The notes under the pieces: generated by a model
Seen by the model: the letters and a program-made list of their open reading frames with translations, nothing else
The model's database searches: none
What the model was told of the DNA's origin: nothing
Program-made: the position numbers and the translations under genes
Shown here: positions 1,030 through 19,696 of the stretch, piece by piece
Position numbering within the stretch: the first letter of the stretch is position 1
Layout: each line of letters opens with the position of its first letter
Origin: a virus
Lineage: Duplodnaviria > Heunggongvirae > Uroviricota > Caudoviricetes
Length of the DNA stretch: 20,973 bases
Reading direction: 5' to 3' (one strand)
IMG/VR virus record: IMGVR_UViG_2778261696_000009
Location: 1-20,973 of that record

Positions 1030-3363
1030 TCAGGTTGTCGCAGGGTCGTCACATTTTGGCAGCCAGTCGCCGTAGCTTTCCTCTTTCAGCGTCAGGTTGG
1101 TCTGTATCCCCTGTTTGGTATGGCGCTTCTCGTAATTCAGTCCGTATTCCTTCAGCATCACCGGCAGCCCCAGCCCGAACATTTTCAGACTGAGTACATT
1201 CCGGTAGCCGTTTGCCTCCATGTAGGCCAGATAGGCGTGATAGAGGTATTTACGGTAATTGCGCGGGATGATACTGGCGTTCCCCATATACATGCCGCTG
1301 GTCTGCGGCAGGGTTTCCAGATAGCCGATAAAATCAAACGTCGGGTCGGCATCCCGTTTGATGTTCAGCGCCTCGTATGAGTTCTGCTGGGACTGAAGCA
1401 GTGACCGGGCGAGCATCGGGTCGCTGAACTTCTGCATCAGGTGACGCACGATGACCGCCAGCTCGCGGGTGATTTTGTCCTTAAGCTGCGGGTCGCGCTC
1501 CTGCGGGGCTATCTGTTCCGGGAAGTGAATAATCACCCGCCGGCGTGACACGCCGCCGCTGCGGTCGGTGAAGCGCATCGGGTTATTGTTCACGGCCAGA
1601 ATTACCGCCGGGATATGCGTGGAGTATGCATCCCGGTATTTCGGGTCAACGGACACCGCATCGCCGCCGGTGATGGCCTTGAGTCCGGCACCGTCGCCGC
1701 TCCATTTTTCCTGGTCCGGCAGGCGTATCAGTGAGAAGCCAGTTAACGCGGCACGTTCACGCGGGGATTCCAGCGTCTCGATGGTGGCCGACGTGGCGTT
1801 ATCCTCCCCGGCCAGCAGGGTGGCTATTTCGGCCATGATACTTTTGCCGCTGCCGCCGGGACCGGTCACCTCCAGAAAGAGCTGCCAGTCGTAGCGGTTT
1901 GCCAGCACCATAAACAGTGCGGCCAGAATCACGTCGCGTTTTTCCGCACGACCACCGGCGGCACGGTCAAGCCAGCGCCAGAACGCGGGGGCGTGGGTTT
2001 CCAGCGTTTCCCCTTCCACCGGCGGGGTGAAATCCACATCGCACAGGGTGCGCATCCAGTGTGACGGACTGTGCGGGTGGAACGTGCCGCTCTGCGTGTC
2101 GAGCACGCCGTTACGAAAGCCAATCAGGCGGCGGGAGGGGGCTTCCTGCTGCGGAATAATCAGCTTCAGGGTGTCCACCACGGAGGCCACCTTCCCGGAG
2201 GAGAACGGCGCGCGCAGACGCTGAAACAGCCCGGCCACATCCCGGGCAAAGTCCTGTGGCGGCAGCACCTTCCAGACACCATTTTCATAGCGGGACAGAA
2301 GCTGGCCGTTGGCATCGACCGCGAGCGCCTCGCCGTAATGCTCATAGATACGCATGGCCTTTTCGCTGGTACTCATGGCGGAAAACTCCGCTTCGCTCAT
2401 GGTGTCGAACGGGCTTTCAGCCGGTGGCCGGATGGCATCATAAATGGCCTTACGGGTGGCTTCCCCGCCGTACTGCGTGAAGGCATCATTCCAGTCACCG
2501 AAGACCGGCGGCAGGGCAACAACACCTTCACACGCATCTGCGGCTGCGGCGGCTTTTGTCTGGCCGTCACCGCTGAGGTCACGGTCAGCAGCAAGGACAA
2601 TCTGACAGGCCGGATGCTTCTGCCGGGCAAGGCTGGCCAGAGAAAGGAGGTTCACGGAAGAAAGCGCCACCATCACCGTTTCACCGGTCAGGTGATGCAC
2701 GGTAAGTGCGGTCGCGTATCCCTCCGCTATCCACAGACGTTTTCCGGCCTGATTCTGTCCTTCAAGGGTGTGACAGGTGCCCCTGACCTGTCCGCCTTTC
2801 AGGGTGCGCTTACGGCCGTCAGCGCTGATTAACTGAAGGTTAACCAGTTCGCCGCTGTCGTCATACAGTGGCACCACAAGGTCACCGGCGCACCAGCTCA
2901 CGCCACCGGCTCTGTGTGTGCCGGTCAGCATCCGGCATTCCCGGCCGGGAAAACCCTTGCGGGTCAGGTAGGCGTTACCGGTTCCGGGACGGGTTTTCGC
3001 CATCAGGGTTTGTGCCAGTGCGGCGGCGTTCTTCCGGGCAGCGTCTGTTTCAGCACCGGCGGCGGCCGTCACTGCCGGGTCAGCCGGGGGCAGACAGCCG
3101 GTCACGGCAGCCACCTTTGCGGCCGCGTCGGACGGGGAAACACCAAACACCTTTTCAACCAGTTTCAGGCCGTCACCGGCACCACACTGATTGCAGTACC
3201 AGGTGCCGCGCCCCTCCCTGTCATCAAAACGGAAGCGGTCACTCCCGCCACAGACCGGACAGGGCTGATGACGGTTTTTCAGCACCTGAATCCCCAGCGC
3301 CGGGAGAATACGCGGCCAGTGGCCGAGCGCATGGCTGACGGTGGCGGTTACGTTCATTTTCAT
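1030..3363 (-). CDS. alpha: P4-type alpha protein: bifunctional DNA primase / helicase / origin-binding replication protein
   Basis: 777-aa ORF, the length recalled for P4 alpha. N-terminal zinc-binding motif (CPVCGG...CNQCG), Walker A P-loop (GPGGSGKS) mid-protein, and a C-terminal domain upstream of the TGTTCACC iterons it would bind. AAGGAG RBS 8 nt upstream of the ATG. GC-rich. Confidence 0.9.
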   Translation of the reverse strand: MKMNVTATVSHALGHWPRILPALGIQVLKNRHQPCPVCGGSDRFRFDDREGRGTWYCNQCGAGDGLKLVEKVFGVSPSDAAAKVAAVTGCLPPADPAVTAAAGAETDAARKNAAALAQTLMAKTRPGTGNAYLTRKGFPGRECRMLTGTHRAGGVSWCAGDLVVPLYDDSGELVNLQLISADGRKRTLKGGQVRGTCHTLEGQNQAGKRLWIAEGYATALTVHHLTGETVMVALSSVNLLSLASLARQKHPACQIVLAADRDLSGDGQTKAAAAADACEGVVALPPVFGDWNDAFTQYGGEATRKAIYDAIRPPAESPFDTMSEAEFSAMSTSEKAMRIYEHYGEALAVDANGQLLSRYENGVWKVLPPQDFARDVAGLFQRLRAPFSSGKVASVVDTLKLIIPQQEAPSRRLIGFRNGVLDTQSGTFHPHSPSHWMRTLCDVDFTPPVEGETLETHAPAFWRWLDRAAGGRAEKRDVILAALFMVLANRYDWQLFLEVTGPGGSGKSIMAEIATLLAGEDNATSATIETLESPRERAALTGFSLIRLPDQEKWSGDGAGLKAITGGDAVSVDPKYRDAYSTHIPAVILAVNNNPMRFTDRSGGVSRRRVIIHFPEQIAPQERDPQLKDKITRELAVIVRHLMQKFSDPMLARSLLQSQQNSYEALNIKRDADPTFDFIGYLETLPQTSGMYMGNASIIPRNYRKYLYHAYLAYMEANGYRNVLSLKMFGLGLPVMLKEYGLNYEKRHTKQGIQTNLTLKEESYGDWLPKCDDPATT

Positions 3364-3377
3364 GGTGTTGTTCTCCT

Positions 3378-3626
3378 TCAGTGCAGTACCGGCGCTTTTA
3401 TGTGACGGGCACAGAGTTCATCCATCACAACCAGCCCGAGAAAGGACAGCGACGGCGCGGCCTTCAGGGGGCCGGATTCCATTAAATCTTCCAGCAGGGC
3501 ACAGGCTATCTGACGCCCTTTTTCCTCACCGTGCTGGCGCAGATAAAAGCCCTCCAGCTCAGCGGCGATGGCCGCCTCCAGTGACTCAAGGGTGAGATGC
3601 GGGTAGCGGTGCTGACGTTCGCACAC
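3378..3626 (-). CDS. Small protein in the epsilon position, directly upstream of and co-oriented with alpha; identity unverified
   Basis: Stop lies 14 nt upstream of the alpha ATG and overlaps the alpha RBS, suggesting co-transcription. The start is uncertain: GTG at 3626 has no obvious RBS and internal ATGs exist. Called by position only. Confidence 0.35.
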
Positions 3627-3716
3627 GGTCAGCCAGGCACAGGCGACAGCGCGACGGTAAAGGGCAGCGCGTAAGACGGGCGGTACCGCGATTCACTGAC
3701 GTCAGCCTCCGGCAGT

Positions 3717-3998
3717 ATGAAACGCCCGAAAAGAATGCTTGTTACCGGATATTGTTGTCGGAGATGTAAAGGCCTTGCACTGTCAAGAACATCGCGGCGT
3801 CTGTCTCAGGAAGTCACCGAGCGTTTTTATGTGTGCACGGATCCGGGCTGTGGTCTGGTGTTTAAAACGCTTCAGACCATCAACCGCTTCATTGTCCGCC
3901 CGGTCACGCCGGACGAACTGGCAGAAAGCCTGCATGAAAAACAGGAACTGCCGCCAGTACGCTTAAAAACACAATCATATTCGCTGCGTCTGGAATGA
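3717..3998 (+). CDS. delta: Ogr/Delta-family zinc-finger late-gene transcriptional activator (single-domain)
   Basis: Cys4 pattern CRRC...(x22)...CTDPGC, with SRTSR and RFIVRP segments that align by eye with phage P2 Ogr (C..C...ARTSR...KERY.QC....C...RYIVKP). 93 aa as called; an alternative start is the ATG at 3735. Confidence 0.8.
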   Translation: MKRPKRMLVTGYCCRRCKGLALSRTSRRLSQEVTERFYVCTDPGCGLVFKTLQTINRFIVRPVTPDELAESLHEKQELPPVRLKTQSYSLRLE

Positions 3999-4071
3999 GG
4001 GCTGCCGGTTAACACCGGCCGTCGCCGCACACCGTATTTTTATTCTTCAGCATGATGAGAAAGAGATAACG

Positions 4072-4644
4072 ATGGAAAGCACAGCCTTACAGCAGGCCTT
4101 TGACACCTGTCAGAATAACAAAGCAGCATGGCTGCAACGCAAAAATGAGCTGGCAGCGGCCGAACAGGAATATCTGCGGCTTCTGTCAGGAGAAGGCAGA
4201 AACGTCAGCCGCCTGGACGAATTACGCAATATTATCGAAGTCAGAAAATGGCAGGTGAATCAGGCCGCCGGTCGTTATATTCGTTCGCATGAAGCCGTTC
4301 AGCACATCAGCATCCGCGACCGGCTGAATGATTTTATGCAGCAGCACGGCACAGCACTGGCGGCGGCACTGGCACCGGAGCTGATGGGCTACAGTGAGCT
4401 GACGGCCATTGCCCGAAACTGTGCCATACAGCGTGCCACAGATGCCCTGCGTGAAGCCCTTCTGTCCTGGCTTGCGAAGGGGGAAAAAATTAATTATTCC
4501 GCACAGGATAGCGACATTTTAACGACCATCGGATTCAGGCCTGACGCGGCTTCGGTGGATGACAGCCGTGAAAAATTCACCCCTGCGCAGAACATGATTT
4601 TTTCGCGTAAAAGTGCGCAACTGGCATCACGTCAGTCTGTGTAA
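4072..4644 (+). CDS. psu: Psu (polarity suppression protein; capsid decoration / Rho antagonist) of P4-like satellites
   Basis: 190-aa ORF, the length recalled for P4 Psu. Directly downstream of the delta-like gene as in the P4 sid-delta-psu operon (no sid here). GC-rich, helical-looking sequence. Confidence 0.8.
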   Translation: MESTALQQAFDTCQNNKAAWLQRKNELAAAEQEYLRLLSGEGRNVSRLDELRNIIEVRKWQVNQAAGRYIRSHEAVQHISIRDRLNDFMQQHGTALAAALAPELMGYSELTAIARNCAIQRATDALREALLSWLAKGEKINYSAQDSDILTTIGFRPDAASVDDSREKFTPAQNMIFSRKSAQLASRQSV

Positions 4645-4680
4645 AATTCCCCGAAAATCCGCCCGTTTTTACTGAAAAAA

Positions 4681-4710
4681 GCCATGCATCGATAAGGTGC
4701 ATGGCTTTGC
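4681..4710 (+). terminator. Possible terminator hairpin after psu
   Basis: Inverted repeat GCCATGCA-(9-nt loop)-TGCATGGC at 4681-4705, followed by TTT. Modest intrinsic-terminator features. Confidence 0.35.
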
Positions 4711-4735
4711 ATGCGTTTCCCTGCCTCATTTTCTG

Positions 4736-4763
4736 CAGACCGCGCCATTCCCGGCGCGGTCTG
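4736..4763. other. Perfect 11-bp GC-rich inverted repeat (CAGACCGCGCC / GGCGCGGTCTG) with a 6-nt loop
   Basis: Seen directly at 4736-4746 and 4753-4763. Not followed by a T-run, so not a classical terminator. Lies in the psu-cos interval, so it could be a packaging- or protein-binding element. Confidence 0.4.
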
Positions 4764-4808
4764 AGCGTGTCAGTGCAACTGCATTAAAACCGCCCCGCAA
4801 AGCGGGCG

Positions 4809-4827
4809 GGCGTGGCGGGGGGAGCAT
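4809..4827. other. Degenerate cos-like site (P2/P4 cohesive-end-like)
   Basis: GGCGTGGCGGGGGGAGCAT matches the recalled P2/P4 cohesive end GGCGAGGCGGGGAAAGCAC at most positions. It sits where cos lies in P4 (after psu) and coincides with the sharp GC-rich to AT-rich transition. Confidence 0.4.
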
Positions 4828-4902
4828 TGCGCGCTAAGGCTGATATTATAATTTTCTTTAATTCTATTTGGTATTTTGGCTTTATTCGTCAGAAGGAACG
4901 TT

Positions 4903-4937
4903 TAGAAATAGACCACTACAATGGATTGTAGCGGTCT
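4903..4937 (-). terminator. Terminator-like hairpin downstream of the int-RT-partner gene string
   Basis: 12-bp stem AGACCACTACAA / TTGTAGCGGTCT (one mismatch) with loop TGGA at 4910-4937. On the minus strand it is followed by ATTTCTAAA and begins about 10 nt after the partner-gene stop. Confidence 0.45.
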
Positions 4938-4946
4938 GCATGATAT

Positions 4947-5687
4947 CTAGCGTTGCATTTCAGTTACTATGAAATTTTCTTCTGTAATAGAATTCATTAT
5001 CTCAAAGTACAATTCTTCAGGTTGAATAAACGCCAACTCTTTGCAAAGGTTGACAATGGTATCACTATAAGTGATACCCATCCGAGGATTGAAAAGCTCA
5101 AATCTCTTGATGTTTCTTTTGTTTTTTGAGTAAAAGTTTAAAGTGAAATATATTAGCACCTGTCTAAGATCGTAAACACTAAACTTCCTATCTCCTGATT
5201 TTATTTCCACAAGAACATTTGAATAATAAATATCGCCATATGAATTATTTATTACTCCGCATCCATCGAATTGTGGAGACACTTCAATTTGGTTTTCCAT
5301 TCCATATCGAGACAAAATGTTTCTTGCTATTTCCCTTATGGCATTGTACTCAACCATGCTTAAGGGTAGCTTGAAGTTAGAACCGTAAGCGAACCGCTGT
5401 AGATATTCTTTTGTTTTTTCAAAAACAACCTGAAAATCAGCATTATGGAAGATATCATGTGCTGAAAGAATATTTCTGTCTAACGAATCATTCTGTATTG
5501 CCCTATATAAATTAAATGCGCACTCATTAACAAAGACGTTATTTGACCTATTAGCGCAGTCATCTAGAGGAGGATAAACGTCCTCGATGAGACTGCCGTT
5601 AATGATGCGTATGAAATTATTAGCATTTGGAAGCAATTGATTCCAAAATGAAGTGAATTTTCGAGAAAACGTTAATTCAGATATCAT
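4947..5687 (-). CDS. Partner protein of the reverse transcriptase (246 aa, unknown family; possible nuclease-like effector)
   Basis: AT-rich ORF whose ATG overlaps the RT stop as ATGA (5684-5687). No family recognised by eye. Contains GDIYYSNVLVEIKSG, i.e. D-x9-E-x-K in a hydrophobic beta-like context, weakly reminiscent of a PD-(D/E)xK nuclease core. Confidence 0.7.
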   Translation of the reverse strand: MISELTFSRKFTSFWNQLLPNANNFIRIINGSLIEDVYPPLDDCANRSNNVFVNECAFNLYRAIQNDSLDRNILSAHDIFHNADFQVVFEKTKEYLQRFAYGSNFKLPLSMVEYNAIREIARNILSRYGMENQIEVSPQFDGCGVINNSYGDIYYSNVLVEIKSGDRKFSVYDLRQVLIYFTLNFYSKNKRNIKRFELFNPRMGITYSDTIVNLCKELAFIQPEELYFEIMNSITEENFIVTEMQR

Positions 5688-7312
5688 AGCGCATCCTCAA
5701 GATTTCTTGCGGTATGCCTTTTACTTGCCCAATCCCTGTAAATCACCTCTACAAAGTTGAATGTTTTCTTATTATGCTCTCTCCAGTGCCGTCCTTCATC
5801 ACCTAAGATGTAACTGGAAACGATCAATAGTCTTCTCTGCAACGGATGCATTGCAGAGAAATTTTTTTTGATATCAGAAAGCCATGCGTAAGAATTAATT
5901 TTTGCCATTGACTGTGTAACTATGTTCTTGACTAAGATGCTTTCTGGATTGTTATTGTATATTTCACTAAGGATTAGGGTGGATTTTTCTGAATTTTCTT
6001 TTGAGAGCATTCGGGCTACATAGGCTAAGTTGAGCTCAGTACTCAAAATATATGAATCTTGTTTAATTAGTGCAGTTATTTTATCAAGAATAATATCTTT
6101 GGTTTCTGTGCTTAATTTTTGCCAGTTGGAGTTAGCTACTTGAATTATAGTTGTAAATATTGGATATAACTCATGCAAGTTATTAAACATTACTTTGAAA
6201 GCACTACTTATTATTTCATCTGATGTTGCTGAGAATGCCTTTATCAAATGCTTGCTAAAAGATTGGTTAATTTTTGATTTTTGTAACTCACTACTCAGCA
6301 TAGCTAACAAGTCAAAATCTTTTAAAGATTCCTTTATCTCTTCATATTCCTCTATCGCATTTGCTGAGTAAGGATCGAATCTTATAGGAAGACTCATAAA
6401 TTTAGCCTTCATAGGAGATTCTTCATCTTCATCATTACCATGCAACTTAGCTTTAGTTACTGAAAGGAACTCTTCTTTAGTAACAATATTGGTTTTTTGT
6501 TTCTGTAAAGTTAGCCCTTCATTTTCCATCAGTTTTTTACTAAGCAAAGTTAAAATCTTATGAGCATCCTCTCTAGAGTTACAAAAAATAACAAAGTCGT
6601 CGACATAACGCTTATAGTTGATTCTATTCATAGACAATAATTTATCAATAGAATCTAGAGCTAGTTCTGCTAATATTCTAGAGGCAGGACATCCAACTGG
6701 TACTCCATATGATTTTGTTTCACTAAATGTCTGTAGTAATTTCTTGATTTTCCCAGAGTAATCTTTATTGGGGTCGACTCTATCTAACGCATTTTCTAAA
6801 CGGTGGTGATAAATACGCGGATAGAAATCTGCTATATCGCATGTAAGTACATACTTTATTTCATCGTTAGAACATTCAGAGATACTGTCTTCTTGATATT
6901 TTCTCCAAGAGATCTCTTTATCAAAAAGAGAACCATCAGCAAGGTTTGGTTTAAAGCGATATGAATAAACCTGCGTTTTAGTAGATCTATTCCTTTCAAT
7001 ATCATCAGCGATTTTTAAAACTAACCCAAGAAAAAAAGCATTCCAGAATGGATCAATTTGGGTCGCCCACCTGTAACCATAATAACCAATACTTGAAAAG
7101 CTATTAATTATGTTTGGTGGAATCTCGATCCTTTTATTTTCAAAGTCATTAAATGTTTGCATTAATGCAGTTTTTACTTTCTCCTTATCATCTTCAAATA
7201 ACCGACTTTCAAATGGGTAAGGGAAAATATCTGTATCGCCGTGCTTTATAATATTTTCCAATGCAAGCTCAAAGCAATTTTCTAGTTTACTACTATCAAA
7301 CTCGTTACTCAT
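5684..7312 (-). CDS. Reverse transcriptase (Abi/DRT-like defence-associated RT: N-terminal RT domain plus ~250-aa C-terminal helical domain)
   Basis: RT palm motifs in canonical order: LTCDIADFYPRI (motif A-like), GVPVGCPASRILAELAL (motif B-like), YKRYVDDFVIF (motif C, YxDD box). The C-terminal half has no RT motifs and contains GRHWREH (R-x4-H). The ATG overlaps the integrase stop (AATGAGTAA) with AAGGAG 7 nt upstream. AT-rich. Confidence 0.85.
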   Translation of the reverse strand: MSNEFDSSKLENCFELALENIIKHGDTDIFPYPFESRLFEDDKEKVKTALMQTFNDFENKRIEIPPNIINSFSSIGYYGYRWATQIDPFWNAFFLGLVLKIADDIERNRSTKTQVYSYRFKPNLADGSLFDKEISWRKYQEDSISECSNDEIKYVLTCDIADFYPRIYHHRLENALDRVDPNKDYSGKIKKLLQTFSETKSYGVPVGCPASRILAELALDSIDKLLSMNRINYKRYVDDFVIFCNSREDAHKILTLLSKKLMENEGLTLQKQKTNIVTKEEFLSVTKAKLHGNDEDEESPMKAKFMSLPIRFDPYSANAIEEYEEIKESLKDFDLLAMLSSELQKSKINQSFSKHLIKAFSATSDEIISSAFKVMFNNLHELYPIFTTIIQVANSNWQKLSTETKDIILDKITALIKQDSYILSTELNLAYVARMLSKENSEKSTLILSEIYNNNPESILVKNIVTQSMAKINSYAWLSDIKKNFSAMHPLQRRLLIVSSYILGDEGRHWREHNKKTFNFVEVIYRDWASKRHTARNLEDAL

Positions 7313-8489
7313 TCACATTCTCCTTAATAAAAATATAATCTGAATACCACTGCATCATATCACGGCGTTTATCAATATATTGAGCATGATTATACGTACC
7401 TCTAATATTATTCTTATCTATATGAGCAAGCTGTATTTCTATCCAAGCCGAATCATATCCTTTTTCGTGGAGGATAGTAGATAAGGAATGTCGAAATCCA
7501 TGACCAGTAAGTTTTCCACCATAACCAATACGCTTGATAACTTGGTTAATACTCGCCTCACTCATAGGCTTGTTCGGATCGTTCCGCCCCGGAAAAACAT
7601 AACTATACTTCCCTGTCATCATCTTGAGTTCATTTAGCAAATCTAACGCTTGAGTCGACAAAGGCACAAGGTGTGATCTGCGCATTTTCATCCTTTCAGC
7701 AGGAATTTCCCAAATAGCGTTATCTAAATCAAATTCTGACCATAATGCCGCACGTAATTCGATGGTTCTAACACCTGTAATCATGAGCAATTTCGTGGCA
7801 ATCAGGACAAGCCGACTTCCGGTATATCCGTTTAAGGCGCGAAGAAAATCAGGTATCTCATTAGCCTTTAAGAACGGGAAATGATTTGATTGGTGTACAT
7901 TGAGGGCGCTTGAAAGATCCGCAGCAGGGTTAAACTCAGCCCTTCCAGTAGCAATGGCATAGCGGAAAACTTCTGAGCATCGCTGCCGAACTTTGCGCAT
8001 TTTTTCTAATGCACCGCGCTTTTCGATTTTACGCAGCACATTAAGCAGTTCTAGCGGTTTAATCTCTCCCACTGGCCTTGTTCCCACATAAGGAAAAATG
8101 TCGTTCTTAAACGCTTCCATGATGTCTGATGCATATCCCGCCGACCATTTGGTAGACTTCTGTTGATGCCACTCTCTGGCTATCTTTTCGAAGGCGTTCT
8201 CTGACTCTGTTTGCAGAGCCAGCTTTTGCTCTTTTCGAACCTCACTAGGGTTCTTTCCTTCTGCCACAAGTTTTCGAGCTTCATCACGACGGGAACGAGC
8301 ATCAGCAAGAGTGATCGTTGGGTAAACACCAAGCGAGATCATTTTGGGTTTACCGGCATAGCGATAACGAAATCGCCAGCTTTTACTTCCATTTGGCTCT
8401 ACAAGTAAAGACAACCCTTGCCCATCCCCAAGTGTATAGGCTTTAGCTTCAGGTTTAGCACGGCGAATCTGCATATCATTTAGGGGCAT
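7305..8489 (-). CDS. int: P4-type tyrosine integrase (site-specific recombinase)
   Basis: 394 aa. N-terminal arm-binding-like region, then a tyrosine-recombinase catalytic region with R (LMITGVRTIELRA), HGFRHSLST (H-x-x-R) and a C-terminal RGTYNHAQY tyrosine region. Located at the element edge next to the candidate attR. Confidence 0.9.
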   Translation of the reverse strand: MPLNDMQIRRAKPEAKAYTLGDGQGLSLLVEPNGSKSWRFRYRYAGKPKMISLGVYPTITLADARSRRDEARKLVAEGKNPSEVRKEQKLALQTESENAFEKIAREWHQQKSTKWSAGYASDIMEAFKNDIFPYVGTRPVGEIKPLELLNVLRKIEKRGALEKMRKVRQRCSEVFRYAIATGRAEFNPAADLSSALNVHQSNHFPFLKANEIPDFLRALNGYTGSRLVLIATKLLMITGVRTIELRAALWSEFDLDNAIWEIPAERMKMRRSHLVPLSTQALDLLNELKMMTGKYSYVFPGRNDPNKPMSEASINQVIKRIGYGGKLTGHGFRHSLSTILHEKGYDSAWIEIQLAHIDKNNIRGTYNHAQYIDKRRDMMQWYSDYIFIKENVNE

Positions 8490-14556: not shown

Positions 14557-14754
14557 TTATTTTCCTTTCAGTTGTTTAATTTTAGATTTAAGGGCATCAG
14601 CAAGACTAACCGCATCAGCCGATTTAAATAATTGAGCAGTGGTAGAACGAAGACTTTCGGGAGTAACTCCCAACAGTGCGGCAACCTTAATGAGGTTTTC
14701 ATCACTAACAATCATCGTTTCCCCGTCTTTGCTGATAATCATTTCTTGTTTCAT
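14557..14754 (-). CDS. Small protein (66 aa from ATG 14754; the track calls a TTG start at 14796), first gene of the structural-looking operon
   Basis: ATG at 14754 is preceded by AGGAAC. Its stop overlaps the RBS of the next gene. Confidence 0.45.
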   Translation of the reverse strand: MKQEMIISKDGETMIVSDENLIKVAALLGVTPESLRSTTAQLFKSADAVSLADALKSKIKQLKGK

Positions 14755-15738
14755 AAATAATGTTCCTGTTAGTGCCAGACAAATAAAAAGCCCCAATGCC
14801 GTAAGAGGTTAATTCTGACCAGCAAAGGGGCTTTAACGTGCGGGCAATTACATAATTGATAAGTTAAACTATAAGAGGATTAAACATATCAGCAAATACA
14901 CTTTTTAAATATACTTGATGATATGCTTAAAGGGTGAATAGATACTCCTGAAAACATGCTCTTAGGAAAACATGCGGAATCAATCAGGAATATCTATTCG
15001 GGGCGCGGTGGCCAACCGCTATCTTTCATGGTGTGGATGCACCAGTCAGATTTTAAGGAATCACTATTCCAATCTACTCACAGATTAAATTTTTAATAAT
15101 GATTAACTACACCAACAGTAATCTACCGTTTCAGAAAATCGTTTTTACAACCAAAGCTTATAGATCCGCATTCTATAAAACCCGTTTTGCTATCAATATT
15201 TCCAAAGTTTATTGCACCATTCTTAGCTAAACTCTCTCTGCTTGCGGCTAACGCTATGCAGATGATTGTTTTTGACAACAACTTAATAGATTATTCTGTT
15301 ACTAACTTCTGTCATTAAATAATAGTTTAATGATGTTAGTAAATAGTTATAAAATATAACTATCAGTGTAAGGCTCTTTAATGTTTTCTGACAAAATAAG
15401 GAGCTTTAGGATAAGCATAGATGAAAAATAATAGCGGGAAGGGCAAGGAGATAACACCTACCCGCTTTTATCAAAATTAAGCACAATGCCTAACAACATT
15501 CATCAACACAACGTAGAAACAATCAACAATCAAAGAGGGAGTTATGATTATTCTAAAACTTCTTGAGAGATGGAAGGTAATATTTGTTAGAGGTTAATGC
15601 CACTCAACCTTTGAGGCTATCACCTTCCATATGCAGGGATTTATGACAGTAGAAGGATTAACACCAACTAAAATCTTTTTATCTACCCCTAAAATTATTA
15701 TATAACAAAATCATTATAAATGCAAATAATTTTCATTA

Positions 15739-16038
15739 TCATTTAGAGAAAATAGCACTTTTTGCTAAATCATCTACTAATTGCTGAATCTCTTCACTTG
15801 CAACCTTTAACGTGGTGGCGATGTCTGTGATGATTTGATTACACTGTTTTGCATCGTCCTCTGATACGCTCACCAGAGAGATAAAATCGTCAAGGCTTAC
15901 ATTCACCTTCATTAAGCTAATAACGCATTGAGAGAGCGTGTAATCGCATAAATCTGAATAGGCTTGATTTATTCTTGTTTGTAGTGAGATAGTCAGATCT
16001 AAAAGTTGTTCCATTGCATTGCTAATATCTTCTTCCAT
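15739..16038 (-). CDS. Small hypothetical acidic protein (99 aa)
   Basis: ATG overlaps the stop of the upstream gene (TAATG); AAGGAG RBS 9 nt upstream. Last gene of a minus-strand string of small ORFs. Confidence 0.5.
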   Translation of the reverse strand: MEEDISNAMEQLLDLTISLQTRINQAYSDLCDYTLSQCVISLMKVNVSLDDFISLVSVSEDDAKQCNQIITDIATTLKVASEEIQQLVDDLAKSAIFSK

Positions 16039-16240
16039 TATGCGTATTCTCCTTGTAATGCATCATTAATCATATTCAATACGATGTTAAAAGGTGTCTT
16101 GAGCGTCAGCACTTCATCACGGTAACGCTCTAATGCTTCGTAGTCTTCTGTTTCTTTTGCCAGCCGAATTAACTCTGCATAGTTTTTTGCATCAGACAGG
16201 ATCATCTGAAATAATTGTGTTTCTTGAATATAGCCAATCA
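16038..16240 (-). CDS. Small hypothetical protein (67 aa from ATG 16240; the track extends to 16283)
   Basis: ATG at 16240 has an AGGA-containing RBS (AAAAAAGGAAAAATAATG); the upstream ATG at 16283 has none. Stop overlaps the next start. Confidence 0.5.
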
Positions 16241-16298
16241 TTATTTTTCCTTTTTTGAATATTTTCATTGGGCGCTTATACATACACCCATCATTTTA

Positions 16299-16682
16299 TT
16301 AGTTAGAACGTTTGTTAGAAGCTAATGTATCTTCTAAATGAGCCATCAGATCGACTTCCGATGCACCACCTACACAATTATTGAAAGCGTTAAATCCCAA
16401 AAAATGATGATAGGAGCTAAACCCTAAAAGCTGCCAACGTTTCAGAGTGCCATCAGAAATGATAGTTTGTTTTCTTGTTCTTGGGCGAAAGTAAACGCCT
16501 GGCATTGATTGGATTATTTCTAATTCTTCATCACTTAATTCAGGGGATTCTGTTTCAAGAATAAAGATTATCTCTTCCCCTGGAATTTCGTTATTGGTGT
16601 GTGTCGGTGGACGTTGTCTTTTTGAATTGAAATTACTGTTTTTTTCAATACGTTTTAAGTTGTTCTTTTTCTTTCTTCCCAT
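16299..16682 (-). CDS. Hypothetical protein (127 aa) with a highly basic N-terminus
   Basis: RBS AGAGGGA upstream of the ATG. N-terminus MGRKKKNNLKRIEKNSNFNSKRQRP is Lys/Arg-rich, suggesting a nucleic-acid-binding tail. Confidence 0.5.
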   Translation of the reverse strand: MGRKKKNNLKRIEKNSNFNSKRQRPPTHTNNEIPGEEIIFILETESPELSDEELEIIQSMPGVYFRPRTRKQTIISDGTLKRWQLLGFSSYHHFLGFNAFNNCVGGASEVDLMAHLEDTLASNKRSN

Positions 16683-16779
16683 TTTTCCCTCTTTTTATGT
16701 GGATTATAAAAACTGGACGCCATTGTTACGATGAATATCGCCATAAATGCATTTGCCATATGTATTGCCCGATCTGTTG

Positions 16780-17049
16780 TTATTGATTGTTTGTGAGAAA
16801 CAATTCAAAATCTTTGTTTAATTTCAAAAGACGAAATGTAGTGCTGTTAATCCCTTCATAATCCAGCACACCGAACGATGTAAAATGATTTAACCAATGA
16901 TTTACGTGTTGTGCGCTGTAGCCGCCTAAACTACAAAAGCTAACCACTGTCGGTGGTGAAAACTCTATGTCCAAAATAGCTTTTAAAATGTTGTATCCGC
17001 TTTCAGTTATTTCAATAGTTTTGTTTCCTATAGTGATGTTATAAGTCAT
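16780..17049 (-). CDS. Small hypothetical protein (89 aa)
   Basis: AAGGAG RBS 7 nt upstream of the ATG; immediately downstream of the winged-helix gene. Confidence 0.5.
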   Translation of the reverse strand: MTYNITIGNKTIEITESGYNILKAILDIEFSPPTVVSFCSLGGYSAQHVNHWLNHFTSFGVLDYEGINSTTFRLLKLNKDFELFLTNNQ

Positions 17050-17058
17050 TTATTCTCC

Positions 17059-17727
17059 TTAGAAGGGTAGTGAATCATATATTGTGCTCTCACTTTTGAG
17101 ATCAATTATCAAAGAGTCAAAATCATTTTCACAAAGATAGATATTCTTTGAATCTAATGCTCGTTTTACAAAATCTTCTGTTTCTTCGTGCGGTGGTTTC
17201 TTCTTATCAAGGGAAAGAAGCCAAGTAAAAATTTCGGGCCGCTCAGGGAACTCTGGCTCTTGTGTTTCTTCTTCAACGATGATTTCGGAAACATTCAATA
17301 TTTCATTAGATTCGTCTTCTTTCTCAGAAGGATCAGGTAGTGATGACTCTCCAGGGGGAGTAATATGTGCATCTGTGAATGGTAATGCTTTATAGAGTGA
17401 TGTTTGCCCGTCCCGAGCCTCTACAGAAAGAACTCCCATATCAACAAACATATTTATAATATTGCGAACCTGGCGATCACTAACCATTCCAATATTAGAT
17501 AATGTTTTTTGAGTGGCGTAACATTCTTGCCCTTGTTCATTGAATCCAGCTATATAGCTATAGATTTCAACGGCTGGCAGTGTAGCGGTGTATTCATTAC
17601 CTGACGGTGAGAACCACTTTTTAAACATCTTCAACCACTGCTCAACGACTACATATTTTTGTTTACCATCTTTCTGATTTAGACATTTGGCTTTCGCTTC
17701 GGCAATTGTTTTGATATTTTTGATCAT
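17059..17727 (-). CDS. Winged-helix DNA-binding protein, replication-initiator / replisome-organiser-like (222 aa)
   Basis: AAGGAGG RBS 6 nt upstream of the ATG. Central segment QKTLSNIGMVSDRQVRNIINMFVDMGVLSVEARDG looks like a winged HTH of Rep/DnaD-type initiators, followed by an acidic C-terminal tail. Confidence 0.6.
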   Translation of the reverse strand: MIKNIKTIAEAKAKCLNQKDGKQKYVVVEQWLKMFKKWFSPSGNEYTATLPAVEIYSYIAGFNEQGQECYATQKTLSNIGMVSDRQVRNIINMFVDMGVLSVEARDGQTSLYKALPFTDAHITPPGESSLPDPSEKEDESNEILNVSEIIVEEETQEPEFPERPEIFTWLLSLDKKKPPHEETEDFVKRALDSKNIYLCENDFDSLIIDLKSESTIYDSLPF

Positions 17728-17851
17728 TTAGTTCCTCCTTTGTAAGGACTGTAATTAGTAATTCATTAACAAGTTTTGGAATTGATTTCCCTTCTGCCTT
17801 TGCACGATTTAACAACGCGTTATAAGTTGCAGAATCAAAATTAATATTCAT
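17663..17851 (-). CDS. Ribbon-helix-helix (CopG/Arc/ParG-like) DNA-binding protein
   Basis: N-terminal SATYNALLNRAKAEGKSIPKLVNELL fits a beta-strand plus two helices RHH signature. GGAGAAGGAG RBS upstream. The 3' 65 nt overlap the start of the downstream gene. Confidence 0.55.
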   Translation of the reverse strand: MNINFDSATYNALLNRAKAEGKSIPKLVNELLITVLTKEELNDQKYQNNCRSESQMSKSERW

Positions 17852-17874
17852 TTGGTTTTCTCCTTCTCCTGTTA

Positions 17875-18057
17875 TTATTCTTTCTCTGCTCCTGCCTTAC
17901 GCAGTTCATCAATAATTTTTAGTGCATCGTCAAAACATTTTTCACGCTCTGGATAACCACAGCGTCGCGCTGTGTTCCTATTCATTCTTACCCTAAAGCG
18001 GTTGATCTCACCACGTTTCCAGGCTTCAACTACATCTTGAGAAGTGAAATACTTCAC
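17875..18057 (-). CDS. Small protein (60 aa), first gene of the regulatory operon (GTG start)
   Basis: GGAGG RBS 7 nt upstream of the GTG at 18057; candidate sigma70 promoter ~115 nt upstream. Confidence 0.45.
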   Translation of the reverse strand: MKYFTSQDVVEAWKRGEINRFRVRMNRNTARRCGYPEREKCFDDALKIIDELRKAGAEKE

Positions 18058-18180
18058 TAATTAACCTCCTATTCTATTTGGTTAAAAGAAAAAGACACCT
18101 TGCAAGCCTCTTGGGCTTCAAAGTGCGGTGCATTGGTTTAATTATTTAGAGGATAGGAATGTTTTCCTGTCCCTAATATT

Positions 18181-18209
18181 ACTTTACCATAACTAAAGGC
18201 TTTTGTCAA
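18181..18209 (-). promoter_or_regulatory. Candidate sigma70 promoter for the minus-strand regulatory operon (TTGACA-N17-TAAAGT)
   Basis: On the minus strand: -35 TTGACA (plus 18204-18209), 17-nt spacer, -10 TAAAGT (plus 18181-18186). A dyad AGGAA-N4-TTCCT at 18155-18168 lies just downstream and could be an operator. Confidence 0.35.
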
Positions 18210-18542
18210 CCCCCGCCCATAAAATATTGATCATTTTTCAGTATGTTATGATTTTGCTTAGCAATTCGTGCTCTTCTGTGTGATGCTATTCTTCCTTATT
18301 CTCTAAAACGCGTTCTAACGAGGTTTTGATAAAAACAATACATTCCCTTATGTAATGACAGTTTAGCTCGCCAGAGGTTTATTTAAGGGGCTTATTTTGT
18401 ATTTGTTAGGTATATGAAAAGGAGATGATAGATAAACTCTAATTTCAGACACCTTATAAAATACCTGTAAAGCTCCTCAGAAGCTCTATAATGAGCTAAT
18501 CTATTACCGCTAAGGTTTCCCTGCCTTATATACGTTTAGCTC

Positions 18543-18809
18543 GCCTACGGCTTGATTTAAGCGGTAGAAACTTATTTAACCTTCAACTACTAAAACCATT
18601 CTTTCTTTTTTGTTTGTTGTTGGTTGTTGTCTGTGTCTATGTGCTAACATCGCTAACGCGTAGCACACAAGGTTATTGCACTCGTCAGAGTATTGCACAA
18701 TAGATTTTCTCTTAAATAGATTGATGATCGTTAGATTGGCGTAAGCCTCATCAATGGAACTATTGAAGCGCACAGCGCAAGACTATTTAGCCTTACGCAA
18801 GCCGTAGGC
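18543..18809. repeat. Perfect 12-bp inverted repeat pair (GCCTACGGCTTG / CAAGCCGTAGGC) flanking ~240 bp
   Basis: GCCTACGGCTTG at 18543-18554 and its exact reverse complement at 18798-18809; flanking bases extend the match imperfectly. A related direct repeat GTTTAGCTCGCC occurs at 18361-18372 and 18534-18545. Confidence 0.5.
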
Positions 18810-18893
18810 TATTTGCACATAGTAGATTACATATTCGTTGTGAGCGGCATTAGCGAACATAGATCTACTAACTAACATCAACAAACAAAAACT
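18607..18893. repeat. Imperfect ~55-bp inverted repeat pair (TTTTTGTTTGTTG... arms)
   Basis: 18607-18660 versus the reverse complement of 18836-18893: the first 13 nt are identical (TTTTTGTTTGTTG), then partial identity including CTATGT and CGCTAA. Confidence 0.4.
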
Positions 18894-19040
18894 ATGTGTT
18901 ATGACAAGCAGTCTAACGACTAACACTCTAACTTGTGCAAGGTTCTGGCGAATGCCAATAGATTAAGGGTATAATTATTCTTATAAAGATAAAAAAGAAT
19001 TATATTATATAGTTTAATTGTAGTTTAATTATAGTATTGT

Positions 19041-19140
19041 CGGAAATCATTTCCTAGGTGATAGGAACTCATTTCCTAGGTAGGTAGGAAACCACTTCCA
19101 CGGTTATTTCCTAAATAGATCGGAACTCATTTCCCAGGTG
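19041..19140. repeat. Iteron array: 4-5 tandem ~22-bp repeats with a palindromic core GGAAATCATTTCC
   Basis: Units at 19041-19060 (cGGAAATCATTTCCtaggtg), 19063-19082 (aGGAACTCATTTCCtaggta), 19086-19105 (aGGAAACCACTTCCacggtt), a partial unit at 19106-19118, and 19121-19140 (cGGAACTCATTTCCcaggtg). Each carries the dyad GGAA-N5-TTCC. Confidence 0.6.
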
Positions 19141-19646
19141 TTATTTATACTTATCGGGTATCAGACTTGATAGGGGTAGCTCACAGTGACCTACCGTTAC
19201 ATCCAATCATCACATAGCATCTGTGCAATGATCTTCTAAAAGTGTTTCTTGCTACCAAAATTAAACATCTAAAACAGGCTTAAATTCAATGTAATTGATG
19301 ATTAATCCCTGTGTAATTCCTACGTAAAAATCCAATGAAAAGTAGCTTAAAAAGTGCAATGTTAGCTTTCTTCACTTTTACATCACTTTCGCAAAGCCTT
19401 GTGTAATACGGCTTACAGAGCACTATCAGAAATTGTTGATTAAAAATCAATCTATTATTTGTCGAACAAGTTTCCTTTAATGCAACAAAAAATTATTTTT
19501 TCAAAATAAACACACTATTTAATAGCTTGCTAATTTTACCAAAATGTAACTACATGATTCTCATGCAAGACGTGTAGTGATAAAGCAGGCTAAATCACCA
19601 CACTAAAAACCTTCGAATTTCGTAGTGAAAAAAGTCCTTTACACAC

Positions 19647-19689
19647 CTAATCAACACGATCAATAATCACTACACACAAATCAACACAG
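19647..19689 (+). promoter_or_regulatory. Direct AATCAACAC repeats immediately upstream of the serine recombinase gene
   Basis: AATCAACAC at 19649-19657 and 19679-19687, with ATCAATAATCAC between. Position suggests a promoter/operator or recombinase binding site. Confidence 0.3.
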
Positions 19690-19696
19690 AAGGAAA

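Follow-up and report, generated by a model that had tools for sequence, protein, structure and literature searches.

A predicted structured, untranslated leader RNA that may gate the capsid and tail genes of a satellite-like island in Escherichia coli

What does a mobile element keep in almost 1 kb of DNA without any sizeable open reading frame (ORF), placed directly in front of its structural genes? This question is raised by a gap in the window analyzed here (the whole stretch of 20,973 nt), which consists of E. coli chromosome around an integrase-bearing, satellite-like island of ~11 kb. A first-pass annotation had described 14797-15738 as an AT-rich interval without ORFs of 60 aa or more, situated between the regulatory and the structural operons, and had suggested that it may host a noncoding RNA (ncRNA), an origin or a packaging site. 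The absence of ORFs was borne out, the largest ones being 52 aa (15123-15281, minus strand) and 46 aa (14956-15096, plus strand), and the placement was right. Using the PGAP start codon (ATG) of the downstream gene, the true gap extends over 14755-15738 (984 bp) and also lacks ORFs of 60 aa or more. Its GC content of 0.34-0.37 agrees with the label AT-rich, but the adjacent early genes (16001-19000) are equally so (0.35-0.38).

Both genes bordering the gap are encoded on the minus strand. The last early gene (15739-16038) encodes an acidic helical protein of 99 aa, and its stop codon abuts the putative leader promoter described below. Family searches gave no family assignment for this protein and did not support the label "transporter" that it carries in public records. 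On the other side, the first late gene (65 aa, 14557-14754) opens a capsid/tail operon, in which it is followed by genes for a 127-aa protein, a major capsid protein (MCP)-like protein of 343 aa, another protein of 65 aa, a TMP-like protein of 613 aa and a Dit-like protein of 225 aa. The MCP-like protein belongs to the lambda gpE type (PHROG 29; in relatives, Pfam Phage_cap_E) and had no protein match in the phage database. Neither a terminase nor a portal is encoded by the island.

Conservation and noncoding character of the gap

We found the island in 290 of 5426 complete E. coli genomes (about 5%) and in at least nine further enterobacterial genera, and an IMG/VR search for relatives of the gap returned E. 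coli copies only. In 271 E. coli genomes, the gap has a length of ~960-1005 bp and never carries an annotation. Every relative has an ORF-free stretch of about 0.45-1 kb at the same position; it spans 485-740 bp in Citrobacter, Kluyvera, Buttiauxella, Phytobacter and Scandinavium as well as in Raoultella, Klebsiella, Cronobacter, Enterobacter and Pluralibacter. In position, the interval is thus conserved among related elements of E. coli and the other genera. Conservation is most pronounced in the 5' half of the predicted leader, an untranslated stretch of ~470 nt (15221-15692, minus strand; folding z-score -4.8) in which eight diverged E. coli copies share 96-99% mean pairwise identity, compared to mostly 50-77% for the flanking genes. 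These first ~470 nt are the most conserved part of the island, and the gene of the 99-aa protein belongs to the same conserved block.

We considered whether the interval is decayed coding sequence, junk spacer or a home of small proteins only. A 17-aa ORF on the plus strand (15545-15598) with a good Shine-Dalgarno sequence and further ORFs of 36-52 aa would fit small proteins; however, one-base indels in the conserved part break the 17-aa ORF and a 19-aa ORF in otherwise near-identical copies, and six-frame similarity between lineages hops across frames and strands. Both observations argue against coding, and we regard the interval as noncoding. A length kept in 271 genomes, the highest identity of the island in the 5' half and covariation that supports RNA helices (see below) likewise speak against decay or mere spacing, which makes this explanation highly improbable.

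Promoter, terminator and helices of the predicted leader

Directly after the stop codon of the 99-aa gene, we identified a candidate sigma-70 promoter on the minus strand (15697-15726) that consists of a -35 element TTTGCA (15726-15721), an 18-nt spacer and a -10 element TATAAT (15702-15697); it matches the consensus at 10 of 12 positions and points in the direction of the proposed transcript, which is predicted to start near 15690 (UAGGGG...). This promoter aligns with TTGACA-N17/18-TAnnAT promoters of relatives (10-11 of 12 positions); 23 of 27 cluster representatives, including 22 family members, have one at the corresponding place. In 58 of 79 leaders, a GGG lies at constant spacing from the -35 element, and the stretch 15711-15745 is the only one with blastn similarity to other genera. 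The -35 element is overlapped by an AT-rich, operator-like 19-mer, GATAATGAAAATTATTTGC (15714-15732, minus strand), which matches the Fur-box consensus at 15 of 19 positions and whose function is uncertain. Promoters of the window type and of Citrobacter L011 score 15-16 of 19 for this consensus, compared to a null maximum of 13 inside leaders; in its place, TGAATAA-N2-TATTCA palindromes are present at -45 to -25 in other genera.

At the opposite end of the gap lies an intrinsic terminator (14781-14834, minus strand), a stem-loop followed by a U-tract on the transcribed strand. Its stem is formed by AAAGCCCC (14834-14827) and GGGGCUUU (14794-14787) and is followed by UUAUUU, its 32-nt interior allows extra pairing, and 26 nt separate its end from the first late ATG. 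A simple terminator scanner overlooked it because the loop exceeds 8 nt. In 68 of 69 distinct relatives, the 170 nt upstream of the first late gene contain a terminator hairpin with U-tract; these hairpins comprise 28 different stem pairs and lie 11-114 nt before the first capsid-module gene. We found no promoter-like site between the terminator and the first late ATG. As a side observation, the leader of the early operon (18230-18060) resembles the late leader in places, including CCGCACNTTNAAGCCC at both terminators; these similarities are individually non-significant (E ≥0.5).

The first-pass annotation had pointed to a 9-bp inverted repeat within the gap. The repeat exists, with its second arm, ACCTTCCAT, at 15622-15630 as described, whereas its first arm, ATGGAAGGT, lies at 15570-15578 instead of 15571-15579. 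We estimate that a perfect 9-mer repeat within 60 nt arises by chance about 0.2 times per 1 kb, and the 9-bp repeat alone is therefore weak evidence. It gains significance because it belongs to a longer stem that is conserved via compensatory changes. The arms extend to 13 nt (15570-15582 and 15618-15630) and are 92% complementary as DNA, and their sole mismatch becomes a G·U pair in minus-strand RNA. The resulting helix P2 (15570-15630, minus strand) is a 13-bp stem, AUGGAAGGUGAUA paired with UAUUACCUUCCAU, with internal loops GCCUCAA and CUCUAACAA and an inner hairpin; the structure folds with -24.8 kcal/mol (z = -4.3), and none of 200 shuffled sequences was as stable. A second E. coli lineage (L031, L055 and L056) carries GAAAGCGGGGUAG and CUGCCUCGCUUUC at the P2 position. 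Across the alignment, 100% of cells in the P2 stem are paired and both sides have changed in 10 of its 13 pairs. A covariance model built from window-type sequences only found the second lineage at E = 4e-6. MAFFT combined with RNAalifold on the two E. coli lineages missed P2 because MAFFT had put the replaced arms out of register, and we used an in-register alignment (A4) and a model-based alignment; a second MAFFT run lost register on the 3' hairpin described below, too.

The repeat is one of many helices and is better seen as P2 of a leader of ~0.9 kb than as a stand-alone element. Helix P1 (15634-15691, minus strand), in which 15691-15685 pair with 15640-15634, encloses the conserved loop motif UUAAUCCUUCU; 96.7% of its cells are paired and both sides changed in three pairs. 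The motif AATC(A/C)CTTC occurs within the first ~95 transcribed nt of 43 of 79 unique leaders. For the P1 and P2 domain as a whole, 96.6% of cells are paired, a share that falls to 36-53% when partners are slid; of the 37 pairs, 18 have changes on both sides. Further downstream, an internal hairpin AGCGGG...CCCGCU (15421-15466), read from the sequence and folded, is flanked by an A-tract and, on its opposite side, a U-tract. It resembles a bidirectional terminator, and a shorter RNA of ~270 nt is therefore possible.

Toward the 3' end, an allelic hairpin (14936-14999, minus strand) combines a 16-bp outer stem and a covarying inner stem with the invariant apical loop UCCUAAGAG. Its stems are wholly different in three alleles, which fold with z from -4 to -8; pairing holds in 94.8% of cells, compared to 31-48% with a slid partner column, and 8 of 16 pairs changed on both sides. 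A near-palindromic hairpin with 24-nt arms (14880-14930, minus strand) separates it from the terminator. The sequence CCTAAGA is found on the sense strand of 37 of 79 leaders and its complement in one. A preference of CCTAAGA for stem-flanked positions was rejected, with a mean of 5.0 bp compared to 4.6 bp at random positions. Since such stems are no commoner there than at random positions, we claim only the long E. coli stems.

Strand, family membership and DNA-level functions

Folding z-scores across the structures range from -4 to -8, and one helix in the relatives shows double changes in 7 of its 10 pairs. Both strands fold far better than shuffled sequences (z near -5), and thermodynamics can therefore not assign the strand. 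Read as minus-strand RNA, the mismatches within the stems are G·U pairs, where plus-strand RNA would have A·C; the energy of the consensus fold amounts to -386 kcal/mol on the minus and -344 kcal/mol on the plus strand. Analysis of covariation and structural conservation across homologs, as proposed in the first-pass annotation, gave covarying stems in two E. coli lineages, but the model of the P1 and P2 domain (R1) did not find other genera. Two or three deep lineages underlie the covariation of the window-type RNA, which so reflects few independent events. Searches of other genera with the E. coli gap (blastn and nhmmer) recovered only a 38-nt promoter block. Because R1 misses these genera, the putative homology across genera rests on position, motifs and the promoter/terminator frame; common to them are the position, this frame, the starting GGG, the AAUC(A/C)CUUC motif and the CCUAAGA loop.

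We also weighed a function at the DNA level, in which the interval would be a cos/pac site that a helper terminase recognizes for packaging, an origin of replication or a series of palindromes bound by proteins. Inverted repeats are indeed numerous (23 pairs), folding z-scores are strongly negative on both strands, and the block is near-identical in all E. coli copies, as a site matched to a helper terminase would be. The island lacks terminase and portal, so a packaging signal must exist somewhere on it. However, pairing is maintained through G·U pairs of one strand, an asymmetry that DNA palindromes would not tolerate, and in every genus the region is bounded by a promoter and a terminator. 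The packaging site and the origin that had been suggested for the gap found no support: the lambda cosN sequence GGGCGGCGACCT occurs nowhere in the window and blastn of the conserved block against 50,697 phage records gave no DNA match, and 14700-15800 contains no tandem iterons, an iteron array of four copies with 22-35 bp spacing being located elsewhere, beside an AT-rich stretch at 19040-19143. We thus consider a DNA site quite unlikely. Of the functions suggested at the outset, the ncRNA is the one that agrees with the promoter, the terminator, the covariation and the strand-specific G·U pairs.

A putative gate in front of the late genes

Taken from the arrangement of these elements, our preferred explanation, which we hold to be probable with modest confidence, is a long, structured and untranslated leader RNA on the minus strand that ends in a terminator and renders the late genes conditional on antitermination. 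The transcription unit would comprise ~0.9 kb, from about 15690 down to 14781. By default, RNA polymerase arriving from the leader promoter or by read-through from the early operon would halt at the terminator, and the MCP-like, TMP-like and Dit-like genes would be made only when termination is overridden. The folded leader would carry the signals for this gate of conditional termination and antitermination; candidate factors are host Nus proteins at a boxA-like site, an island protein (e.g., the one of 127 aa) or an antiterminator of a helper phage. The predicted untranslated RNA, with a promoter of its own and a terminator before the capsid and tail genes, would probably be an on/off gate for them, although we infer both RNA production and regulated read-through from the DNA. 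If this reading is right, a widespread mobile element is controlled from this gap, and a constitutive promoter, a long folded leader and a terminator would explain how structural genes stay silent until a helper phage arrives. It would also extend boxA-type signals to satellite-like elements and add one more large structured RNA to the short list of enterobacteria.

Alternatively, the RNA could be a stand-alone structured ncRNA acting in trans, for example an immunity RNA (as P4 CI or P1 c4), a decoy or sponge for the helper or an RNP scaffold; the terminator would then merely end the RNA, and control of the late genes would be a side effect or achieved by other means. Its own strong promoter and terminator are as one would expect of such an RNA, which could also be released as a ~270-nt species at the terminator-like hairpin 15466-15421, and the invariant apical loop motifs UCCUAAGAG and UUAAUCCUUCU and a conservation of the 5' 470 nt beyond the need of a simple leader would suit it as well. 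However, we found no match to C4/CI or any other Rfam family and no complementarity to a target: TCTTAGG is absent from the sense strand of the window leader, and its copies in the window lie only at 14960 (plus strand, as the complement of the loop) and 5802 (minus strand). Moreover, the terminator is always located just before the late operon with no promoter in between, as a gate acting in cis predicts. We therefore regard the trans-acting RNA as unlikely.

The gating leader that we favor resembles the lambda PR'-6S RNA-tR'/Q system, in which a strong promoter likewise yields a short noncoding transcript that ends at a terminator directly before the head/tail operon, whose genes then depend on read-through; the island has the same order of a predicted promoter and an intrinsic terminator just upstream of its late structural operon. 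The lambda PR'-tR' leader has 194 nt, whereas that of the island spans 0.45-0.9 kb, is heavily structured and contains conserved internal motifs. A Pfam search of sixteen island ORFs other than the integrase and the recombinase returned no antiterminator, Q included, and a helper-encoded Q may act instead; we recognized neither a Q-binding element nor a sigma-dependent pause, and sequence alone cannot reveal either. The HK022 put RNA is also a folded leader that acts in cis, where it modifies RNA polymerase to read through downstream terminators; put comprises ~70 nt in two stem-loops, which the island leader exceeds by an order of magnitude. To our knowledge, no nut, put or PR'-tR' leader comes near a length of 0.5-0.9 kb. 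The P4 CI and P1/P7 c4 RNAs share with it that an untranslated leader of a satellite or phage controls premature termination into downstream genes, but the Rfam C4 model had no hit, we identified no complementary repeats of the seqA/seqB/seqC type, and the genes gated on the island would be structural rather than replicative.

A further or altogether different role is hinted at by the 96-99% identity across the first 470 nt. It is conceivable, though rather doubtful, that the leader represents a class of large structured RNA that is uncatalogued and specific to this island family, with a length of 0.45-0.9 kb, five or more covarying helices, the invariant loops UCCUAAGAG and UUAAUCCUUCU and duties beyond those of a passive leader. 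Such an RNA machine might sense the helper or recruit Nus factors to yield terminator-resistant polymerase, and it could also act in trans on the helper. ROOL and GOLLD match it in size (0.5-0.9 kb), in the number of their conserved helices and in being located on mobile elements; in contrast to these, the island RNA is always a leader between promoter and terminator before an operon. Searching Rfam 15 (including C4/CI, ROOL and GOLLD) with the 20,973-nt window and eight related loci gave no hits at the gathering threshold and chance-level hits only (E > 0.5). Rfam holds no such RNA, and our literature searches found no description of the island, its family or its leader.

The rrn leaders (boxB-boxA-boxC) and the lambda N/nut system have in common with the relatives a boxA core in an untranslated transcript together with a hairpin, which in the relatives covaries: their core GCTCTTTA, at about +190 to +270 from the predicted start, is followed by this hairpin and GTCAGAC. 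The 8-nt core is present in 28 of 79 unique leaders, with positions 9-11 deviating from the boxA consensus GYTCTTTAANA (PMC5725501). In L011, the flank of boxA echoes the rrn leader, and the hairpin is followed by TCAGACAATCT..CGAAGAT. The positional counterpart of this module in the window is a degenerate boxA-like segment, AAAGCUCCUUAUUUUGUCAGAAAAC (15384-15408, minus strand). A proper boxA was not found on the sense strand of the window, where the best match, GCTCCTTA, agrees with the core at 7 of 8 positions and continues with TTT; the hairpin between the boxA-like segment and GUCAGA is absent, and most E. coli alleles read GUCCGA, not GUCAGA. As reported by Stringer 2020 in the form cited in PMC7862264, boxA shields long untranslated transcripts, among them rRNA and CRISPR arrays, against Rho. 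We rejected the proposal that a sense RNA rich in G and poor in C escapes Rho, as G exceeds C in only 22 of 79 leaders. Complexes of the rrn type act mainly on Rho-dependent termination, not on intrinsic terminators.

As regards a lambda N-like mechanism, the window leader has no boxB hairpin after its boxA-like segment, and the loop of the relatives' hairpin is CCGUUAGG, which we take not to be a lambda-type boxB loop. The 127-aa protein has a basic, disordered N-terminus and a poor AlphaFold model (pLDDT 55); its assignment as N-like was not supported by Pfam, PDB, PHROG or PADLOC searches, the first three of which gave no match for it. Finally, the window contains a perfect boxA core, GCTCTTTAA(TG), on the plus strand (15373-15383), which is preceded by a 9-bp hairpin (15343-15363) but by no good plus-strand promoter. 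It resembles the rrn leader sequence GCTCTTTAACAATTTATCAGACAAT.

The gap and the island that carries it

The ORF-free interval between the early genes and the capsid/tail genes (the gap) extends over 14755-15738 when the downstream gene starts at its annotated ATG, and an ORF scan bore out the first-pass annotation, which had reported for 14797-15738 that no ORF reaches 60 aa. The interval had also been described as AT-rich, which agrees with its GC content of 0.34-0.37, but the neighbouring early genes are similar in this respect. The gap sequence alone matched 282 E. coli genomes, with at least 80% of the gap covered in 271 and a length of about 960-1005 bp among the matches listed; no annotated feature lay beneath any of these E. 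coli matches. When eight diverged copies were aligned, positions 15221-15816 were 96-99% identical, except for one 50-nt segment at 15667-15716 (90%), whereas the flanking genes, including the capsid-like gene, were mostly 50-77% identical; no part of the island is thus better conserved than this non-coding stretch and the adjacent 99-aa gene. The 3' part of the gap (14755-15220) varies, with distinct alleles. A coding or pseudogene reading is disfavoured, because single-base indels within the conserved part disrupt a 17-aa ORF (15545-15598) and a 19-aa ORF (15421-15480) and because the similarity hops between frames. The 99-aa gene (15739-16038), the last early gene, encodes an acidic helical protein labelled 'transporter' in many public records, a label unsupported by our family searches; the gene is nearly invariant except at 15817-15904, where it varies.

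The window is 100% identical to the chromosome of E. coli EC12, adjoining thrW/proA, and contains two mobile elements, at 1030-8489 and from 8728 to about 20300. The second, an approximately 11-kb island holding the gap, was present in 290 of 5426 complete E. coli genomes. Its plus-strand integrase gene is followed by a minus-strand run encoding Dit-like (Pfam, E = 1e-27), tape-measure-like (PHROG, E = 3e-34), 65-aa, capsid-like, 127-aa and 65-aa proteins, then by the gap, seven small early genes including one for an HTH protein, a second gap and a serine recombinase gene. The capsid-like protein matches PHROG 29, its relatives match Pfam Phage_cap_E, and tblastn returned no match to it among 50,697 phage records. 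Since neither terminase nor portal is encoded on the island, we infer that it is satellite-like. To our knowledge it lies outside the P4-like, PICI, cfPICI and PLE satellite families, and literature searches did not find a description of it. The gene set, joining an integrase to Dit-like, tape-measure-like and lambda-gpE-like capsid proteins and lacking terminase and portal, is unusual.

Related loci were collected from several sources by profile search with the capsid-like protein: from GTDB (Citrobacter, Buttiauxella, Kosakonia, Phytobacter, Kluyvera, Scandinavium and Raoultella), from NCBI and Logan assemblies (Klebsiella, Cronobacter, Enterobacter and Pluralibacter, together with a second lineage of E. 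coli in which the capsid-like protein shows 56% identity) and from 80 metagenome contigs. Gene order was identical in all fetched relatives, and all carry an ORF-free stretch from the 99-aa-like gene to the small gene heading the capsid module. The length of this stretch is 485-740 bp in the other genera; in the second lineage of E. coli it is about 870 bp. The 92 upstream regions formed 18 sequence clusters.

Structure and strand of the predicted leader

The suggestion of a non-coding RNA in the gap was supported and can be made more specific: a structured leader on the minus strand, with a terminator. The 9-bp inverted repeat pointed out in the first-pass annotation is real, although its first arm lies at 15570-15578, one base from the position reported, and its arms extend to 13 nt (15570-15582 and 15618-15630). 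It constitutes helix P2 (15570-15630) of the leader's 5' domain, which also contains helix P1 (15634-15691). The P2 stem pairs AUGGAAGGUGAUA with UAUUACCUUCCAU in the window, including one G·U pair, and GAAAGCGGGGUAG with CUGCCUCGCUUUC at the equivalent position in the second E. coli lineage, including two, with the internal loops (A)GCCUCAA and UCUAAC retained; three P2 versions have a common folded shape (z -3.4 to -4.3). A covariance-model check, which had been proposed earlier, found the second E. coli lineage at full length and on the sense strand (E = 4e-6 to 2.5e-5) with a 133-nt model of P1 and P2 built from only four window-type sequences. In the P1+P2 alignment, which was fitted to this model and holds only two deep lineages, 96.6% of cells are paired versus 36-53% with a slid partner column, and both sides have changed in 18 of 37 pairs. 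All 13 P2 pairs are always paired, ten of them with changes on both sides.

Compensated pairing was likewise observed in the variable 3' half, where a hairpin at 14936-14999 has three alleles. Their outer stems, of 13-16 bp, differ completely, their inner stems are CAUG/CAUG, GGGGC/GCCUU and UUGGC/GCCAA, and the apical loop, UCCUAAGAG, is invariant. The in-register alignment of this hairpin has 94.8% of cells paired versus 31-48% when slid, with both sides changed in 8 of 16 pairs. In other genera, a long hairpin shows double changes in 7 of 10 closing pairs. Of 79 leaders, 37 have CCUAAGA loops on the sense strand, and the complement of this motif was found in one. Regarding the strand, the non-Watson-Crick pairs of the P2 and 14936-14999 stems are G·U on the minus strand and A·C mismatches on the plus strand, and the consensus folding energy is -386 kcal/mol (minus) versus -344 kcal/mol (plus); thermodynamics alone does not separate the strands (z -4.8 minus, -5.5 plus).

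Promoter, terminator and boxA signals

Directly past the stop codon of the 99-aa gene lies a promoter-like sequence, TTTGCA-N18-TATAAT (15726-15697, minus strand). TTGACA-type promoters matching 10-11 of 12 positions occupy the homologous place in 23 of 27 cluster representatives (22 family members and L020, a distant Yersinia match), 58 of 79 unique leaders have a GGG at a constant distance after the promoter, and blastn alignment of the gap between E. coli and Citrobacter is confined to the promoter block. At the other end, the window terminator stem pairs AAAGCCCC (14834-14827) with GGGGCUUU (14794-14787), followed by UUAUUU, and the terminator ends 26 nt upstream of the late ATG at 14754. 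A hairpin with a U-tract lies at most 170 nt from the first late gene in 68 of 69 distinct relatives, with 28 different stem pairs. No promoter-like site was found between terminator and late genes in the window.

These data fit a gate of promoter, leader and terminator before the capsid/tail genes. Transcripts from the leader promoter would end at 14781, as would those from the early operon, which is not closed by a terminator ahead of the gap, and the capsid and tail genes would then need read-through of the terminator. The logic is that of lambda PR'-6S-tR'/Q, and in relatives the gate carries nut- or rrn-like signals. We classify the type of control as an already known one, termination/antitermination of a late operon; the RNA that would carry it is new to Rfam 15, in which neither the window nor eight relatives matched a known family. 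An additional or alternative role, for example as a trans-acting RNA, is possible given how large and how extremely conserved the 5' domain is. The other roles suggested for the gap fared less well: an origin is disfavoured by the absence of iterons, repeats lying instead at 19040-19143, and a packaging site by the absence of a lambda cosN and of similarity to any of 50,697 phage records. A candidate for the factor acting at the gate, the 127-aa protein (basic N-terminus, predicted disordered), had no match to anything known.

The nut- or rrn-like signals of the relatives include GCTCTTTA, present in 28 of 79 unique leaders, all from non-E. coli genera, about +190 to +270 relative to the predicted start. 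Next come a hairpin with a covarying stem (CATTCA/TGAATG, CTCAAAC/GTTGAG, CTTATAA/TTATAAG) and loop CCGTTAGG, and then GTCAGAC. Judged by its sequence, GCTCTTTA is a boxA core (consensus GYTCTTTAANA; PMC5725501). E. coli genomes contain the rrn leader sequence TGCTCTTTAACAATTTATCAGACAATCTGTGTGGGCACTCGAAGATAC at a median of seven places each, about 100 nt upstream of 16S rRNA in one copy examined, and the Citrobacter locus L011 is an obvious echo of this leader, reading TGCTCTTTAC-hairpin-TCAGACAATCTCGAAGAT. According to Stringer 2020, as cited in PMC7862264, long untranslated transcripts are kept from Rho termination by boxA. On its sense strand, the window-type leader has only AAAGCUCCUUAUUUUGUCAGAAAAC, with 7 of 8 boxA core positions and no hairpin, and most E. 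coli alleles read GUCCGA at that boxA-module site. A perfect core, GCTCTTTAA, is located at 15373-15383 on the plus strand, opposite to the leader, with a perfect 9-bp hairpin (15343-15363) before it and, after it, TTTTCTGACAAAAT, which is similar to the rrn leader. No plus-strand promoter was found for this core; an antisense transcript from the region is possible.

Several further elements were observed along the leader. Overlapping its -35 element, 15714-15732 agrees with the Fur-box consensus at 15 of 19 positions; window-type alleles and Citrobacter L011 score 15-16 of 19, against a maximum of 13 in background segments. In other genera this place is taken by TGAATAA-N2-TATTCA palindromes. 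Midway along the conserved part, a hairpin AGCGGG...CCCGCU at 15421-15466 is flanked by an A-tract and a U-tract; it resembles a bidirectional terminator and could give a shorter RNA of about 270 nt. The 13-mer AUUAACCUCU(U/A)AC is found both inside the terminator hairpin (14801-14813) and in the P2 3' internal loop (15586-15598), and CCUCUAA also occurs in the early leader (18152-18146); these may represent a shared recognition motif.

The second gap and the P4-like remnant

A second ORF-poor gap spans 18058-19696. Four iteron-like repeats of 22-24 nt with the core GGAAATGAGTTCC lie at 19040-19143 and adjoin a very AT-rich stretch (18975-19040); the two together resemble an origin of replication or an array of operators. 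At the start of the early operon (18080-18215, minus strand), a promoter (TTGACA-N17-TAAAGT) with a predicted, late-leader-like transcript start UAGGGA precedes a short leader and a terminator-like hairpin, GAAGCC/GGCUUGC with a U-tract, just upstream of a 60-aa gene. CCGCACNUUNAAGCCC is found upstream of both early and late terminators with 14 of 16 matches, but by itself this similarity lacks significance (E about 2).

The element at 1030-8489 is a P4-like satellite remnant with primase, psu and integrase genes; its hotspot holds a DRT type 8 defence pair. The pair lies at 4947-7312 (minus strand), between psu and integrase, and consists of a 542-aa reverse transcriptase (PADLOC Drt8, E = 5e-166) and a 246-aa PD-(D/E)xK partner (PADLOC RTasPDDEXK, E = 5e-69).
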